Under the pieces are notes generated by a model that did not search any database, had not been told where the DNA came from, and worked only from the letters and a program-made list of their open reading frames with translations. From Escherichia coli (GTDB taxonomy: Bacteria; Pseudomonadota; Gammaproteobacteria; Enterobacterales; Enterobacteriaceae), in assembly GCF_013315695.1 (NCBI RefSeq), contig NZ_CP054353.1: a stretch of DNA of 64,000 nt; one strand, given 5' to 3'. Every line of letters starts with the position of its first letter. Position 1 is the first letter of the stretch. Below are positions 30,615-38,844 of the stretch, one piece after another. A program made the translations under genes and the position numbers.

Positions 30615-33011
30615 ATGGCAGTAAAGATTTCAGGTGTACTGAAAGACGGCACAGGAAAACCGGTACAGAACTGCTCAATCCAGCTGAAAGCAAAACGTAA
30701 CAGCACCACGGTGGTAGTGAACACGCTGGCCTCAGAAAATCCGGATGAAGCCGGGCGTTACAGTATGGATGTTGAGTATGGCCAGTACAGCGTTATCCTG
30801 CTGGTTGAAGGTTTTTCGCCTTCACATGCCGGGACCATCACCGTGTATGAAGATTCTAAGCCGGGGACGCTGAATGATTTTCTCGGTGCCATGACGGAAG
30901 ATGATGTCATGCCGGAGGCATTGCGTCGTTTTGAGGAAATGGTGGAAGAAGCGGCACGCAACGCTGAAGCCGCCTCTCAGAGCGCAGCGGCGGCAAAGAA
31001 ATCCGAAACTGCAGCGGCATCATCGAAGAACGCGGCGAAAACCTCAGAAACGAATGCAGCTAATAGTGCACAGGCGGCAGCGACCTCAAAGACTGCATCG
31101 GCAAACTCCGCGACAGCAGCCAAAAAATCAGAAACCAACGCGAAAAATAGCGAGACAGCCGCAAAGACGAGCGAAACCAACGCAAAGTCCAGCCAGACGG
31201 CAGCGAAAACCAGCGAAACGAATGCCAAAGCCAGTGAAACTGCGGCAAAAAACAGCCAGGTTGCAGCAGCCCAAAGCGAGAGCGCGGCAGCCGGTTCTGC
31301 GACTTCAGCAGCTGGATCAGCAACTGCTGCGGCTAACAGCCAGAAAGCTGCGAAGACGAGTGAAACTAACGCAAAGTCCAGCCAGACGGCAGCGAAGACC
31401 AGCGAAACGAATGCCAAAGCCAGCGAAACTGCGGCGAAAAACAGTCAGGATGCAGCAGCCCAAAGCGAGAGTGCTGCAGCTGGTTCTGCAAGCGCGGCGG
31501 CTGCTTCTGCCACTGCATCAGCCAACAGTCAAAAAGCAGCAAAAACCAGTGAAACCAATGCAAAGACAAGCGAGACTGCAGCGGCGAACTCGGCGAAAGC
31601 ATCGGCAGCAAGCCAGACAGCAGCTAAAGCAAGTGAAGACGCAGCCAGAGAGTATGCAAGTCAGGCAGCAGAGCCGTATAAATATGTCTTACAGCCACTG
31701 CCTGATGTGTGGATACCGTTTAACGATTCACTGGATATGATTACGGGCTTTTCGCCGTCATATAAAAAAATTGTTATTGGTGATGATGAAATAACGATGC
31801 CTGGCGACAAGGTTGTTAAGTTTAAACGCGCATCAACTGCCACATATATCAATAAATCAGGCGTATTTAGTGTTGCTAAAATTGATGAGCCACGATTTGA
31901 AAAAGAAGGTTTATTGATTGAAGGACAGCGCACTAACTATTTTGTTAAATCCAATACTCCCGCTGAATGGACGAGTACCAGCAATATCGATAAAACTAAT
32001 AATGGTGTTGATGAATTTGGTTTTTCATATGCCAAAATGCGAACAAAAGATAATATGACAGGACAATCATCTGCACTTAGTCTGCATACATGCAGTGCAT
32101 CCCGGGGGATTGATGTTAGTGGCGATAATAAGTATTGCACTGTTTCATGCAGGGTTAAAGCTCCTGATGGTCTTCGTTGTCGTTTGCGTTTTGAAAAATA
32201 CGATGGGTCGGTTTATACATTTTTAGGAGATGCTTATTTAACTTTCGGAACTCTGATAATAGAAAAAACTGGCGGAGCAGCCAATAGAATAGCAGCTACT
32301 GCAACTAAAGATCCGGTTACAGGGTGGATTTTCTATGAGGCAACTATAGAAGCTGTTGAAGGTGAAACCTTAATTGGCGCAATGATTCAGTATGCGCCGA
32401 AAAAAGGTGGTATAACTGAAGCGGGAGATTATATTTACCTTGCAACACCACAATTTGAAAACGGCGGATGTGCTTCATCTTTTGTTATTACGACAACTGC
32501 ACCCGCAACCCGCTCCAGTGATATGGTGACGATCCCAACTGAAAATAATATCTATAATAGACCGCTTACGTGTCTTGTCGAGGTTAATAGAAATTGGGGC
32601 GATATTCCTCCTAATGTAGCACCGCGTATTTTTGATTTTTCTGGTGTGCCACCTATTGAGTCAATTACATACGCTTTTAACACAACTGAGAAATATTACG
32701 GTCAGCTTTATATGCAAACTTATAAAGCGTCGACAAGTACTTACGTTTCTAGTGTGTTTGCTGGTCGAGCTGATGTTCGAAAATTCATTGGTGGTTTTAA
32801 TATTTATTCTGATGGTACTAAACGAGTAGTTTCTAACGGTGAGGCTACTAAAACTATGAAAACGGAGTGGACGGGCGTAAAAACACGGACCTTTATTCGA
32901 ATTGGAGGTCAAGCCACATCGGGAACTCGTCATCTATTCGGCCATTTGAGAAATCTTCGTCTCTGGCATAAAGAATTAACTGATGCGCAAATGGGGGAGA
33001 GTATTAAATGA
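30615..33011 (+). CDS. stf: Side tail fibre Stf, intact single ORF; lambda-type N-terminus and repeats, divergent low-GC C-terminal domain
   Basis: 798 aa; N-terminus MAVKISGVLKDGTGKPVQNCSIQLKA..; Ser/Ala/Thr/Lys repeats; C-terminus ends ..GHLRNLRLWHKELTDAQMGESIK, resembling LamG/ConA-like lectin domain ends. Confidence 0.8.
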   Translation: MAVKISGVLKDGTGKPVQNCSIQLKAKRNSTTVVVNTLASENPDEAGRYSMDVEYGQYSVILLVEGFSPSHAGTITVYEDSKPGTLNDFLGAMTEDDVMPEALRRFEEMVEEAARNAEAASQSAAAAKKSETAAASSKNAAKTSETNAANSAQAAATSKTASANSATAAKKSETNAKNSETAAKTSETNAKSSQTAAKTSETNAKASETAAKNSQVAAAQSESAAAGSATSAAGSATAAANSQKAAKTSETNAKSSQTAAKTSETNAKASETAAKNSQDAAAQSESAAAGSASAAAASATASANSQKAAKTSETNAKTSETAAANSAKASAASQTAAKASEDAAREYASQAAEPYKYVLQPLPDVWIPFNDSLDMITGFSPSYKKIVIGDDEITMPGDKVVKFKRASTATYINKSGVFSVAKIDEPRFEKEGLLIEGQRTNYFVKSNTPAEWTSTSNIDKTNNGVDEFGFSYAKMRTKDNMTGQSSALSLHTCSASRGIDVSGDNKYCTVSCRVKAPDGLRCRLRFEKYDGSVYTFLGDAYLTFGTLIIEKTGGAANRIAATATKDPVTGWIFYEATIEAVEGETLIGAMIQYAPKKGGITEAGDYIYLATPQFENGGCASSFVITTTAPATRSSDMVTIPTENNIYNRPLTCLVEVNRNWGDIPPNVAPRIFDFSGVPPIESITYAFNTTEKYYGQLYMQTYKASTSTYVSSVFAGRADVRKFIGGFNIYSDGTKRVVSNGEATKTMKTEWTGVKTRTFIRIGGQATSGTRHLFGHLRNLRLWHKELTDAQMGESIK
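31179..31556 (+). repeat. Two tandem ~189-bp copies (63 codons each) inside stf
   Basis: aacgcaaagtccagccagacggcagcgaa... recurs at 31179 and 31368 at ~90% identity. Confidence 0.7.
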
Positions 33012-34317: not shown

Positions 34318-34446
34318 GCTGTATATGCAACGGAGGAAGAAACCCCGTTGCTGGAAGCCTGGAAAAAGTATCGGGTGTTGCTGAACCGTGTTGATACATC
34401 AACTGCACCTGATATTGAGTGGCCTACGAACCCTGTCAGGGAGTAA
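34318..34446 (+). pseudogene. 3' remnant of a tail fibre assembly gene (tfa)
   Basis: 42 codons ..[39 protein letters not shown] with an in-frame stop immediately upstream. Confidence 0.65.
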
Positions 34447-34500: not shown

Positions 34501-35169
34501 CTATTTTTTCCCTGAAGCGGAAAACATTACTACAGTACCTTGAACCTTGGTTTTAACATTCTCGAAATGCTCTGAGAGTATATGTGTTAAGCCTTCTTCG
34601 GAATCTTTTGTGTTTGAAAAGATGCCTTTCTGATTGTAAATGCGCATCAGTTTTTGACCGAAGCTATTGTGCACAACTCCATCGCCAAGAATTGTGGCTC
34701 CGTATAGAGTTCCATCGTCAGTTAAGGCCTGCGCCGCATTGCGTATTACACAGCTTTTTGTAGATATATTTCCAGGCAGGCAGTGAAGAAGGTAAAACAT
34801 GGAAATGGAATCAAATTGACCATGTAACGCCGCGGGATAAGGTTCAAAAACATCATGGCTAATTTTATGTTTAATTTTTGATTCCCCAGCCCTTGTAGAT
34901 GCCGCGTTCAGGCTAGCTTCGTTCAAATCCATTAAAGATATCAGACTACTCTCAGGTACGTGAGTAAGGTAAAACCCAGTTCCAACACCAATATCCAGAT
35001 GGTTGTTACCTAAATGTTCCAGAAAGTGTGGAAGAAGGTGTTCCTTTGTAGGACATCCCCATGCAAGCCGATTTGATACTCCCAAAACCCACCAGTCATA
35101 AAGCTTTAGGGTAAGTGGTGTGTAAATTTTAGCCCCATCATCTGTGTTTTTTTTCATTAATTTCACCAT
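34501..35169 (-). CDS. ybcY: Class I SAM-dependent methyltransferase (YbcY-like)
   Basis: Motif I ..HLDIGVGTGFY..; low GC; same position between tfa fragments as ybcY in DLP12. Confidence 0.7.
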   Translation of the reverse strand: MVKLMKKNTDDGAKIYTPLTLKLYDWWVLGVSNRLAWGCPTKEHLLPHFLEHLGNNHLDIGVGTGFYLTHVPESSLISLMDLNEASLNAASTRAGESKIKHKISHDVFEPYPAALHGQFDSISMFYLLHCLPGNISTKSCVIRNAAQALTDDGTLYGATILGDGVVHNSFGQKLMRIYNQKGIFSNTKDSEEGLTHILSEHFENVKTKVQGTVVMFSASGKK

Positions 35170-35225: not shown

Positions 35226-35524
35226 ATGCTGCCGCAGCATAGCGATATTGAAATAGCCTGGTATGCTTCGATACAGCAGGAGCCGAATGGCTGGAAGACC
35301 GTCACCACACAGTTCTACATCCAGGAATTCAGTGAGTATATTGCGCCACTGCAGGATGCTGGGAAATCGCAACGGAGGAAGAAAGATCGTTGCTGGAGGC
35401 ATGGAATAAATATCGGGTATTGTTGAATCATGTTGATACATCAGTAGCTCTGGGTATGAAGCTGTTTGTAACTCATGTTACAGTAACAGCCATTACTATC
35501 TCGAAGGTGCAAAATGTATATTGA
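35226..35524 (+). pseudogene. Frameshifted tfa fragment (tfaX-like)
   Basis: ..[10 protein letters not shown].. in one frame, then ..[27 protein letters not shown].. in another. Confidence 0.6.
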
Positions 35525-35710
35525 TTTGATATTTTATAAATTTACTTCGAATCTGGCACGTCAACTTTTGATTAAAGTAATATCAGTTTTCGGCGAAAAA
35601 AGGACCGTGTACATGAGACGATTTCATACAAGAATAACAAAAATATGAATATGCTCCCAATGCAATATATGTTTTGCATTGGGAGCAAATAGCGGAATAT
35701 TTTGAAATTA

Positions 35711-37192
35711 TTATATTTCTGCTTCAGAATTTCCTGGGCAGTATATATTTTCTATTTTTTGTGGAGTGATCAGGTGATGTACAACTGCTTTATCTACACA
35801 TAAATTAACTCCGGTGAGAGCTAATGTATGCCCATCACCATTTATTGTTAGTAACGGGCTGGAAAATTTCTCTGCCATCTTACGGGCATTAATCCAGGGC
35901 GTTGTTGGGTCGTATTTGTGTGCTACAAACAGTAAACCAGAGGGCAGAACAGTATTTTTCAGGCGAGTTTTGTTCAGGTCGCTATGTATTGGCCATAATT
36001 CACAAAAATCAGGTGAATCGGAACGTCCATTGTCAAAGTTAATAGCCGGGAAGGCATTCGCAAGAGCGTCTTTTCGGGATTTTCGCTCTTCTGGTGTTAA
36101 TTGCTCATCCCCCTGATCTACACAGAGGATTACCCCCGAAGCATCGCTTGACTCTTCTGAGGCTATCTGAGCACTGAGCGCAGTTTCAATTTCATTACTG
36201 ACAATCCCCTGAGAGAACTGGCGTATGGCAGTTGCAAGGGTTGGCCATGATGAACGCCATAGCAGAAGGTCTGTTGTTAATGATATGAGTTCATCTGAAG
36301 ATATATTTTCTCCCTTACTGTCTAATAAAGGTTTGTGATGTAATTTTGATAATAGCTCATGGAACTGAGTTATTGCCTTATCTCTGTCTGAAGAAAGCGG
36401 GCAACTTTTTGTACGCGCACACCAGGATGCAAAGCGATCAAACGTTTCCTGATAACTCTGTGCCTGTTTGAGTTGCCATGTGAAGTTGTCCTCCAGGTCA
36501 TCGATATCGACGACTCCATCAAGAACGATAGATCTTACGTTGTAGGGAAAACGTTCTGCATATAAGGCTGCAATTTGAGTTCCATACGAATACGCCACGG
36601 CTGTCAGTTGTTTATCCCCCAAGGCTTGCCTAATACGATCAATATCGTATACAGCCTCGTTAGAGCCGATATGGCGAATGACTTCGGCTCCGGTATTATG
36701 GATACAGGCATTAATTTTATTTAATACTTGTTGCTTTTCGGTTATGTTTTCCTGAGTCTCTGTATCTGATTGCCGGCAGTTTATTGTCGGAGTGGACTGT
36801 CCGACGCCTCGAGGATCAAATCCAATAATATCCCATGACTCACGAAGATTTGTGACTGGCCAGTCAAAGTTAATATAAGGATTTATGCCTGGTAACCCGG
36901 GACCACCACTTATTATCAGGATACTTCCTTTATGCTTGCTTTTTGCCGGCAATTTTGTCAACGCTAGTTTGACTTGTGATTTTTTTTCATAAGAAGCATC
37001 TCCGCCTGTGTCTGTATATTTTAATGGAACAGACAAATAACCACATAGTAAGTCAGGAGACGGTTTTTCCTCACCAAACCAGTGGTTGAATTGACTGGCC
37101 ATACAGGATTGCCACTGTATCTGCTGGGCAGATACGGTTACTGGTAGAAGTAACGTTAAAACAACTTTGAAATGAGTAATTATTTTTCGCAT
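35711..37192 (-). CDS. Secreted alpha/beta hydrolase (S33 / TAP-like peptidase family)
   Basis: Signal peptide MRKIITHFKVVLTLLLPVTVSA; nucleophile elbow AYSYGT; C-terminal ..TINGDGHTLALTG..; low GC. Confidence 0.7.
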   Translation of the reverse strand: MRKIITHFKVVLTLLLPVTVSAQQIQWQSCMASQFNHWFGEEKPSPDLLCGYLSVPLKYTDTGGDASYEKKSQVKLALTKLPAKSKHKGSILIISGGPGLPGINPYINFDWPVTNLRESWDIIGFDPRGVGQSTPTINCRQSDTETQENITEKQQVLNKINACIHNTGAEVIRHIGSNEAVYDIDRIRQALGDKQLTAVAYSYGTQIAALYAERFPYNVRSIVLDGVVDIDDLEDNFTWQLKQAQSYQETFDRFASWCARTKSCPLSSDRDKAITQFHELLSKLHHKPLLDSKGENISSDELISLTTDLLLWRSSWPTLATAIRQFSQGIVSNEIETALSAQIASEESSDASGVILCVDQGDEQLTPEERKSRKDALANAFPAINFDNGRSDSPDFCELWPIHSDLNKTRLKNTVLPSGLLFVAHKYDPTTPWINARKMAEKFSSPLLTINGDGHTLALTGVNLCVDKAVVHHLITPQKIENIYCPGNSEAEI

Positions 37193-37378
37193 TGTGTCTC
37201 TGAATATCGGAATAAAGATAAGATTTGAATATATTGAGGTCTTGTGTTGCGGTAAGAGATTACACGTTATGACATAGGTTAAATGCTTACAAAATTAGTG
37301 GATATTGTCTACTTGTAACTGTAAACAAATTCCCCGGGGTTATACAATACCACCGGGGAGAAAATCTGGTTAACTTCG

Positions 37379-38332
37379 TTAAAAGGTGTACTTAAGACCA
37401 GCAGTAGTGATGAAGTTATAGTTTTCTATGCCTGCACCATTTTTGCTGTAGTCTGAAGTGTTATCATTGTGATCATAAAGTGAAGTATTACCTTTTTTAT
37501 TCGTAACCCGATTCCATGCGCCTTCAACATAAACTTTTGCGTTAGGTGTTACGTAATAACCTGCATTGACTGCAACAGAATAGTAATTTTGGTCTTTGAC
37601 TTTACTGCGATAAGTGATTCTTTTTCCTGGGTCATAGTGCTCATCGTTATCAGATGCTTCCACCCAGCCGCTGTATTTAAATGTGCCACCTAGCTCAAAA
37701 TCTTCATAACGATAACTTCCAGTCAAGCCAATGTAGGGCATTTTAAAACGTTGTTTGTAGCCGATTGCTCTTTCTCCATTCGGGAAGGAGCCGATATCAT
37801 CTCTGAATCCCTCCTCAGAACTGTAGATATAGGAACCACCTCTGGCTGTAAAGCTATAACGGCTTTCCTGATATCCGGCCATGAGTCCCAGGCGGTAATT
37901 GGGTTCGTTGAGGAGCCAGCCTTTGATATTCAGATCAAATTCGTTGGCATAATTGAGTTGTGTATCAGGGTGCCTACTTTCATCTGTCCAGGTTCCGGGG
38001 TTACTGGAATCCATCCAGTCCTGATCGACCATATTGCCACCTCGGCTGCCGAGAGTAGTCCAGCCCGCAGCCCCAATAGATATCTGGGGCATCAAATCCC
38101 AATTAATTGCACCTTTAATAATTGCAGCGTTATTGAATTTCCAGTCGAGTTGACTGACTTTTCGGCCTCCTTCTTCAGCTAGATAAACGCGCTCTTTTGT
38201 TTTTCCGCTCAGAGTTCCAAGACTAATGTCCGCATTTATGTTGTCAGGAGTAAACGATATAGTCTCGGTAGAAGCAAAAGAGCTGATCGCAATAGGGGTT
38301 GTCAGGACTATTCCCAGAAGTTTCGCCCGCAT
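37379..38332 (-). CDS. ompT: Omptin outer-membrane protease OmpT
   Basis: 317 aa, MRAKLLGIVLTTPIAISSFA...TAGLKYTF. Confidence 0.9.
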   Translation of the reverse strand: MRAKLLGIVLTTPIAISSFASTETISFTPDNINADISLGTLSGKTKERVYLAEEGGRKVSQLDWKFNNAAIIKGAINWDLMPQISIGAAGWTTLGSRGGNMVDQDWMDSSNPGTWTDESRHPDTQLNYANEFDLNIKGWLLNEPNYRLGLMAGYQESRYSFTARGGSYIYSSEEGFRDDIGSFPNGERAIGYKQRFKMPYIGLTGSYRYEDFELGGTFKYSGWVEASDNDEHYDPGKRITYRSKVKDQNYYSVAVNAGYYVTPNAKVYVEGAWNRVTNKKGNTSLYDHNDNTSDYSKNGAGIENYNFITTAGLKYTF

Positions 38333-38753
38333 AAAAGTTCTCCATTCAATCGTTTTAATGATTGAATATGTATTTTTTATATCTAACTTAATGAGTCAAT
38401 TACATATTGCTCCACTGTTTATATTTTGTTTAGTATTGAATGATTATCACAATGCGCTATCTGTTTTTGGTTTAATTATCTGTTATTGTTTTATGTTGCG
38501 GTTTTACTGTGTGGTTTTTTATGCTTTTGTGGTGTTTTTATCTATTTAAGCGCCATGCCTTTAGAGGCATATAAGCGAAAATAGCATGAGGTTTATCCTC
38601 AATTGCTATGTTTTTTGGTACAAAAAAGAGGGACAAAACTGAGACACATAAGGCCTCACAATGGCTTGCAAGGCTTTACATGTTTTGAGGTAGTGGGACG
38701 TGTGAGCGCAGAGATGGCGCGGTAAGTTGTTGACTTAAAATGTCGTTCTAGGA

Positions 38754-38800
38754 ACTTCTAAGTCGTGGGCCGCAGGTTCGAATCCTGCAGGGCGCGCCAT
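38754..38800 (+). repeat. attR core: 47-bp partial copy of the argU 3' end
   Basis: Identical to 2070-2116; flanking sequence differs on both sides. Confidence 0.85.
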
Positions 38801-38844
38801 TTCTTCTTCATTTATCCCCGTCTTATCCGTTTCCGCTTTGCCCT

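Follow-up and report, generated by a model that had tools for sequence, protein, structure and literature searches.

The closest characterized relative of the enzyme described here is Hip1 (Rv2224c, CaeA; PDB 5UGQ, 5UNO, 7SFM, 8E5W, and 9MD7/8), a cell-envelope serine protease of Mycobacterium tuberculosis that functions in immune evasion and serves as a drug target. Its catalytic triad (Ser228/Asp463/His490) and the roles of its oxyanion-hole residues and of Thr466 have been stated previously (PMC13041806). Proteases of the OmpT type (omptins) are studied antimicrobial-peptide resistance determinants in enterohemorrhagic (EHEC), uropathogenic (UPEC), and adherent-invasive (AIEC) Escherichia coli, and strain differences in 'omptin activity' have so far been ascribed to promoters and to extra omptin genes. 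The genes ompT, ompP, and arlC are PhoP-dependent, and a PhoP site has been reported for them (bioRxiv 10.1101/2020.02.28.965145). The ompT locus is arranged nfrA-ybcH-envY-ompT, with appY or ybcY adjacent, or a gene 186 bp away, as the downstream variants (Desloges et al. 2019, PMC6854850). Neither of the latter two studies discusses a hydrolase partner of ompT, and a description of an omptin-hydrolase pairing is absent from the literature searched. Here, we analyzed 64,000 nucleotides (nt) of E. coli (assembly GCF_013315695.1, contig NZ_CP054353.1; this whole stretch is called the window), in which ompT is followed on the same strand by a gene for a Hip1-like hydrolase. We found that an omptin gene followed by this hydrolase gene is a conserved two-gene cassette that is new here, and that the hydrolase is an uncharacterized addition to a known enzyme family within this conserved gene pairing. 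Taking all parts together, we consider it reasonably probable that the gene encodes a functional, Sec-exported serine hydrolase of the Hip1/TAP-like type and is the second gene of an ancestral mobile omptin-hydrolase cassette.

The hydrolase gene (35711-37192, minus strand) encodes 493 amino acids (aa). The product matches the Pfam families Abhydrolase_1 (PF00561, E = 5e-33, residues 91-460) and TAP-like Abhydrolase_4 (PF08386, E = 6e-14, residues 386-479), so that the original prediction of an S33/TAP-like alpha/beta hydrolase, made from the window alone, agrees with both domains and can be sharpened to Hip1-like. By sequence, its closest solved relatives are structures of Hip1 (7sfm, 8e5w, and 5ugq; E = 2e-51, residues 21-475). 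An AlphaFold2 model built from a 48-sequence alignment reached a predicted local distance difference test score (pLDDT) of 88.7 and a predicted template modeling score (pTM) of 0.89, with helices at residues 230-380. In a Foldseek search of the PDB with this model, ranks 1-6 were all Hip1 (E = 1e-33 to 1e-30, template modeling score 0.74-0.78), followed by TnmK1/TnmK2 and, far lower, by prolyl aminopeptidases; an assignment to the latter was rejected, as the NCBIfam score was 36 bits against a cut-off of 260. The modeled fold is an alpha/beta core with a large helical lid and can be superposed on Hip1, with which the protein shares full-length homology at approximately 26% identity in the structural alignment. 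Its place in the Hip1/TAP-like branch of the alpha/beta-hydrolase fold (MEROPS S33 type) is therefore confirmed. The Streptomyces tripeptidyl aminopeptidase (Tap) and SlpD/SlpE, which we take to be the namesakes of the TAP-like domain PF08386 and of MEROPS S33, resemble it by domain description, as they combine Abhydrolase_1 with a C-terminal TAP-like domain and are exported serine hydrolases.

The catalytic machinery appears complete. In the alignment, Ser202/Asp428/His455 correspond to Ser228/Asp463/His490 of Hip1, and they lie in canonical order in the nucleophile elbow A200-Y-S-Y-G204, in YDPTTP, and in GDGHT, respectively. The oxyanion-hole motif is G96-G97-P98-G99, and Thr431 is the equivalent of Hip1 Thr466. 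Across the 48 homologs, the three triad residues, Tyr203, Thr431, and G97-P98-G99 are invariant; the Ser-Asp-His triad that a homology and structure search was to look for is thus intact by alignment. The likeness to Hip1 extends to the S-Y nucleophile elbow, the GGPG oxyanion loop, and the cysteines, since nine of the ten hydrolase cysteines align with cysteines of Hip1. Each of the ten is invariant or at least 90% conserved among the 48 homologs, and the protein probably carries five disulfide bonds. One position differs in a way that matters for substrate choice: Glu113 of Hip1, which forms a salt bridge to a P2 lysine, is Leu100 in the E. coli hydrolase, in a column that is variable among homologs (L 17, M 9, G 6, Q 5, E 4). 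The specificity of Hip1 is therefore not transferable, and that of the hydrolase is probably different. The transfer of a P2-lysine preference, which would suit the products of dibasic cleavage, to the E. coli protein was accordingly rejected.

Export to the envelope is common to both enzymes, by prediction in the case of the E. coli hydrolase. Residues 1-22 (MRKIITHFKVVLTLLLPVTVSA/QQ, the slash marking the cleavage point) read, by heuristic criteria, as a Sec-type signal peptide with a K/R-containing n-region, a hydrophobic core, and a VSA/QQ cleavage site. Similar Sec-type N-termini are found in all proteobacterial homologs and in the six cassettes described below, in keeping with the signal peptide originally noted in the window, and many actinobacterial homologs have lipoboxes. 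In contrast to Hip1, the E. coli protein thus has a Sec signal peptide and not a lipobox or membrane anchor, and it belongs to a Gram-negative host. The ten conserved cysteines fit an oxidizing compartment, and the protein could be periplasmic rather than truly secreted. A start at Met31, which drops the signal peptide, is used in PHROG 20134 and in some phage annotations (the record of 2G7b; gp29 of phage NC_049954.1, L017, 5267-6661), and it would mislead localization predictions. We rejected this start: residues 21-30, with W27 and C30 among them, are conserved, and all six cassettes retain the ATGCG start and a signal peptide.

A further difference from Hip1 lies in the location of the E. 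coli hydrolase gene, which phages and plasmids carry beside an omptin gene. In the window, the order of transcription on the minus strand is ompT (37379-38332, 317 aa), a spacer of 186 nt (37193-37378), and the hydrolase gene. The ompT product scores 708 bits against the NCBIfam omptin family NF008222 (cut-off 537) and is so named in the RefSeq annotation of the identical locus as an outer-membrane protease. When hydrolase alleles of 76%-95% identity were traced to their contigs, an omptin gene of 315-317 aa was found directly upstream on the same strand in every case. Six lineages, all at least 76% identical, are paired in this way: the window itself, an IncFIB plasmid with iro genes nearby (L015), ompP on plasmids of the IncF type beside IS66, integrase, and RepB (L005/L016), and three lineages beside fimbrial, autotransporter, or Afa genes (L006/L007, L018-20, and L021-22). 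When the six cassettes are compared pair by pair, identity between the omptins correlates with identity between the hydrolases (r = 0.90), and both sets group alike. The full ompP-hydrolase unit is present on 172 plasmids.

The unit is frequent in E. coli without being general. Among 5426 complete genomes, 1316 (approximately 24%) contain the hydrolase gene, at 1270 chromosomal and 98 plasmid places, and 1212 records have at least 99% identity, each record listed being annotated as intact. The ompT region was matched in 4103 genomes, and the contiguous ompT-hydrolase unit in 1220, compared with approximately 1290 genomes that have a near-full-length hydrolase gene; about 95% of hydrolase genes thus adjoin ompT. 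Conversely, of the ompT loci, about 30% have the hydrolase gene, among them those of O157:H7, O145, O121, and enterotoxigenic (ETEC) strains. This is an accessory gene linked to the island and not a core gene, which contradicts the case of a widespread core gene unrelated to the island that had been named as refuting the original prediction. It is also under purifying selection, as the ratio of nonsynonymous to synonymous substitution rates (dN/dS) between diverged copies is 0.12-0.14 (about 0.13) at a dS of up to approximately 1.15. This value led us to reject a pseudogene, and it bears equally on the idea that the gene is a decaying or non-functional passenger open reading frame. Such a passenger would explain the weak Shine-Dalgarno sequence (GAGA), the lack of a recognizable promoter of its own, and the deletion or replacement of the gene in many lineages. 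Besides the dN/dS, however, the invariant catalytic residues and cysteines, the preservation of an intact gene (99% identity or more) in over 1200 genomes, and a regulated transcript in O157 Sakai (if ECs1662, discussed below, is this gene) all speak for a maintained function, and we regard a passenger as extremely improbable.

The position of the cassette in the window is that of prophage cargo. Lambdoid phages carry morons, or lysogenic-conversion genes, such as lom and bor. The prophage here is of the lambdoid type and integrated at argU, a tRNA-Arg(TCT) gene (2038-2114) that is adjoined by the integrase open reading frame. A perfect 47-bp repeat of the argU 3' end, present at 2070-2116 and 38755-38801 (plus strand), marks attL and the attR core. 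Since the second copy lies only approximately 420 bp from ompT, ompT and the hydrolase gene are the final prophage genes before attR, and the chromosome continues beyond it with envY, ybcH, and nfrA. The GC content is 42.2% for the hydrolase gene and 43.6% for ompT, within a prophage stretch of 36%-47% inside attR, and that of the flanking chromosome is 52%-58%. Coordinates, GC content, and the 47-bp repeat are thus consistent with the low-GC gene for 493 aa that had been placed after ompT, on its strand and before attR.

The mobile unit itself is a 3.0-kb module (35442-38445, minus strand) that comprises a PhoP box, ompT, a hairpin, the hydrolase gene, and a terminator. O157:H7 has a 98.9%-identical copy of this module in another prophage, beside minCDE, and 11 isolated lambdoid phage genomes contain it at 99%-99.9% identity. 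Phage 2G7b has it between the tail-fibre genes and int, and the window from 14000 to 38800 is 98.4% identical to phage PhiR49_1 over 99% of its length. With its late position between tail and att site, its atypical GC content, its presence in phages, and its variability among relatives, the hydrolase module has the properties of a lambdoid prophage moron. It shares with known lambdoid morons the location between tail-fibre genes and attP/attR, the low GC content, a terminator of its own, envelope products, and variable presence. In contrast to them, it is a two-gene unit that is also plasmid-borne, and the left edge of its slot is a repeated fragment of the tfa 3' end. The omptin-hydrolase cassette would accordingly be lysogenic-conversion cargo of lambdoid phages, placed between their tail-fibre genes and attP, and it is also present on IncF plasmids beside ompP-type omptins.

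Carriage by active phages in the classic lambdoid moron position, beside envelope-conversion genes (a Lom/Ail homolog is encoded upstream in the prophage), also invites the explanation that the phage is the beneficiary. The hydrolase, alone or together with OmpT, would then be an envelope superinfection-exclusion or anti-phage factor that degrades proteins of incoming phages. It does match the PADLOC model PDLC01094 ('C3a206, TAP-like protein') with an E-value of 2.7e-56, but this score is no better than the generic family similarity to Hip1. No partner genes of a defense system were identified, nor does the adjacent methyltransferase match a PADLOC model. Furthermore, conjugative plasmids carry the same cassette amid virulence genes (fimbrial, autotransporter, and iro), suggesting a role in host interaction, and we consider a benefit to the phage very unlikely.

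The history of the slot argues for an old association of the two genes. In K-12, a segment with appY on the opposite strand takes the place of window positions 35449-37328; homology stops at 35448/35449 and restarts at 37329. This comparison places appY between the tfa fragment and ompT, as stated in the original prediction. The left breakpoint of the slot, in K-12 as in O157, falls at 35442-35449, at the end of the second of two 75-nt tfa repeats. In the B2-type strain Ecol_542 (L004), 1970 bp (35253-37222) are missing and the slot is empty. Yet the empty slot retains 105 bp from upstream of the hydrolase gene, and therefore a pre-existing hydrolase gene was deleted in B2-type strains. At the junction (6008-6014 of L004), the flanking alignments overlap by approximately 7 bp, which suggests that the loss was a microhomology-mediated deletion that took the hydrolase gene together with a tfa fragment. 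Comparison of the interval from tfa to ompT across E. coli thus revealed three states of the slot (appY, empty, and hydrolase). The prediction that the slot holds different cargo in different strains is supported by this polymorphism; the accompanying notion of the hydrolase gene as a newcomer in the appY slot is not, as the gene is better read as the ancestral neighbor of ompT, which gave way to appY in K-12 and was lost by deletion in B2-type strains.

One published locus can be reinterpreted in this light. In the isolate cystitis 6, the gene 186 bp downstream of ompT was called ymcE, a putative cold shock gene (PMC6854850, Figure 3a text). This distance equals the 186-nt spacer found here, and we therefore read this 'ymcE' as most probably the hydrolase gene under a mistaken label. 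In all, the records and this paper label the hydrolase as 'alpha/beta hydrolase', 'hypothetical', 'putative lactone hydrolase', and probably 'ymcE'.

A PhoP box (TGTTTATATTTTGTTTA, 38416-38432, plus strand) is located inside the 3-kb mobile module, 84-100 bp upstream of ompT and on the strand opposite to it, and is the sole match without mismatches in the 64-kb window. It agrees with the PhoP dependence and the PhoP site described for ompT, ompP, and arlC (bioRxiv 10.1101/2020.02.28.965145). The spacer between ompT and the hydrolase gene (37193-37378) contains no PhoP box even when up to three mismatches are allowed; a TGTTTA half-site noticed there by eye was discarded, as it fails the PhoP-box pattern. 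A consensus scan of the coding strand found no sigma-70-like site in the spacers of the window and of the ompP cassette, which is weak negative evidence. The spacers of the ompP type measure only 92 nt. What the spacer does contain is a GC-rich hairpin (CCCCGG...CCGGGG, approximately 37329-37360, minus strand; about -20 kcal/mol) that begins about 20 nt past the ompT stop codon and is followed by a short, imperfect T-run. It is kept in all six cassettes, where its folding energy is -20 to -23 kcal/mol and the T-run varies, and is likely a terminator or attenuator of ompT. A second, strong terminator-like hairpin with a 14-bp stem (35652-35687, minus strand) is located 24 nt past the hydrolase stop codon.

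On the simplest reading of this arrangement, some transcripts that start at the PhoP-dependent ompT promoter would run through the conserved hairpin and so provide at least part of the hydrolase mRNA, although an efficient terminator is an equally good reading of the hairpin. In arrays of O157 Sakai, ECs1662 and ECs1663 (ompT) drop approximately 6-fold around entry into stationary phase and fall into the same cluster 1 (PMC2241611). Going by gene order, ECs1662, which is O157-specific and numbered next to ompT, would be the hydrolase gene, and the array data are only suggestive of shared expression. The PhoP regulon supplement of PMC7667037 has no entry for the ompT-hydrolase genes.

The hydrolase is most probably a peptidase that acts in the periplasm or cell envelope. 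Together with the omptin, it may form a two-step envelope proteolysis module, in which the hydrolase would further degrade peptides (fragments of host cationic peptides pre-cut by the omptin, for instance) or additional proteins of the envelope or the host. The original prediction also suggested that the two proteases could act together on host peptides; such cooperation is a plausible hypothesis backed only by the persistent linkage. In its most specific form, this would be a dedicated, PhoPQ-induced module mobilized by phages and plasmids, with the omptin cutting cationic peptides or proteins of the host first and the hydrolase finishing the degradation or processing an immune-modulating target, be it of the host or bacterial. 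We put this version forward tentatively and think it unlikely in full. If true, it would make the hydrolase a Gram-negative counterpart of the Hip1 virulence protease, present in EHEC O157:H7 and in about a quarter of E. coli.

Several observations weigh against reading the hydrolase as a peptidase within an omptin cassette. The two genes are separated by a hairpin (about -20 kcal/mol) and a partial T-run, so co-transcription of ompT and the hydrolase gene is not established. Catalytic activities differ within the family: Hip1, which has esterase activity, was originally named a carboxylesterase, and TnmK1/TnmK2 are biosynthetic enzymes and not peptidases. The P2-lysine-binding glutamate of Hip1 is replaced by Leu100, and the literature searched yielded no biochemical or functional study of the hydrolase or its close relatives. 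In addition, approximately 70% of the ompT-bearing E. coli genomes lack the hydrolase gene, and several hundred plasmid omptins of the ArlC type are unpaired with it, as are IcsP, Pla, and Cpa. Around the homologs of 54% identity or less (Salmonella, Budvicia, a Serratia plasmid, and P0011), no omptin gene was found within 5 kb on either side. With distant homologs and most omptins unpaired, the association arose once: the linkage is a single ancestral event that was then retained, and it is general to neither family. The possibility that the plasmid island PI-6 (arlABC) encodes a homolog was likewise unsupported, as the ArlC-type omptins have no adjacent hydrolase gene.

The serious rival to cooperation is therefore an independent moron, that is, an exported enzyme with a substrate unrelated to OmpT (an esterase, lipase, lactonase, or a peptidase with a target of its own, on the model of GroEL2 as the target of Hip1), whose linkage to the omptin reflects shared ancestry and tight physical linkage in the 3-kb module. 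This would account for a pairing that is limited to one clade of at least 76% identity, with distant homologs standing alone on transposons, plasmids, or the chromosome, and for the many omptins that go without a partner, including OmpT of K-12, which functions without the hydrolase. The terminator-like hairpin between the genes, the RAST label 'putative lactone hydrolase', and the esterase history of Hip1, reflected in names such as 'Carboxylesterase A', fit it as well. Set against it is the endurance of the pair: the two genes have stayed adjacent at dS values of about 1 and above, in a prophage as well as in several plasmid settings that are unrelated and rich in insertion sequences, the omptin was lost in none of the six sampled lineages, and the hydrolase gene without an omptin is almost never seen in E. 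coli. We regard the independent moron as somewhat unlikely, and a Hip1-like exported hydrolase retained as the second gene of an ancestral omptin cassette as the more probable reading. Should the hydrolase be a peptidase that cooperates with omptins, the interpretation of strain-to-strain differences in peptide resistance would change, and the enzyme would serve as a tractable model of the Hip1 family in Gram-negative bacteria. Even if the two do not cooperate, they are still a clean case of a two-gene moron swapped between phages and plasmids.

The homologs outside the cassette clade have neighborhoods of their own. In Salmonella enterica (L008-L010, 1-6449), a homolog of 53% identity is located beside a TniQ/TniB/Mu-type transposase module, near a gene for a serralysin-type metalloprotease, and is thus moved by another vehicle. 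On the chromosome of Budvicia diplopodorum (L011, 1341-6455), a 53%-identical homolog is found downstream of a phosphoethanolamine transferase gene of the eptA type and of a Fic gene; this neighborhood, a single case, suggests envelope modification or resistance to cationic peptides.

Finally, the region to the left of the module contains the elements that delimit the exchangeable slot. The second copy of the 75-nt direct repeat, a fragment of the tfa 3' end at 35369-35443 (plus strand), forms the left edge of the cargo slot, and the first copy, likewise a tfa 3'-end fragment, is at 34327-34401. The two copies are 85% identical and enclose an intact S-adenosylmethionine (SAM)-methyltransferase gene (34501-35169, minus strand), whose K-12 counterpart ybcY is frameshifted. 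The repeat resembles an anchor at which recombination could exchange cargo modules. Further to the left, a protein of 798 aa with a tail-fibre N-terminal domain (30615-33011) contains a long low-complexity tract rich in Ala, Ser, Thr, and Lys, with repeated KTSETNAK(A/S)S(E/Q)TAAK units, and a strong AT skew at 30750-31750 coincides with it.

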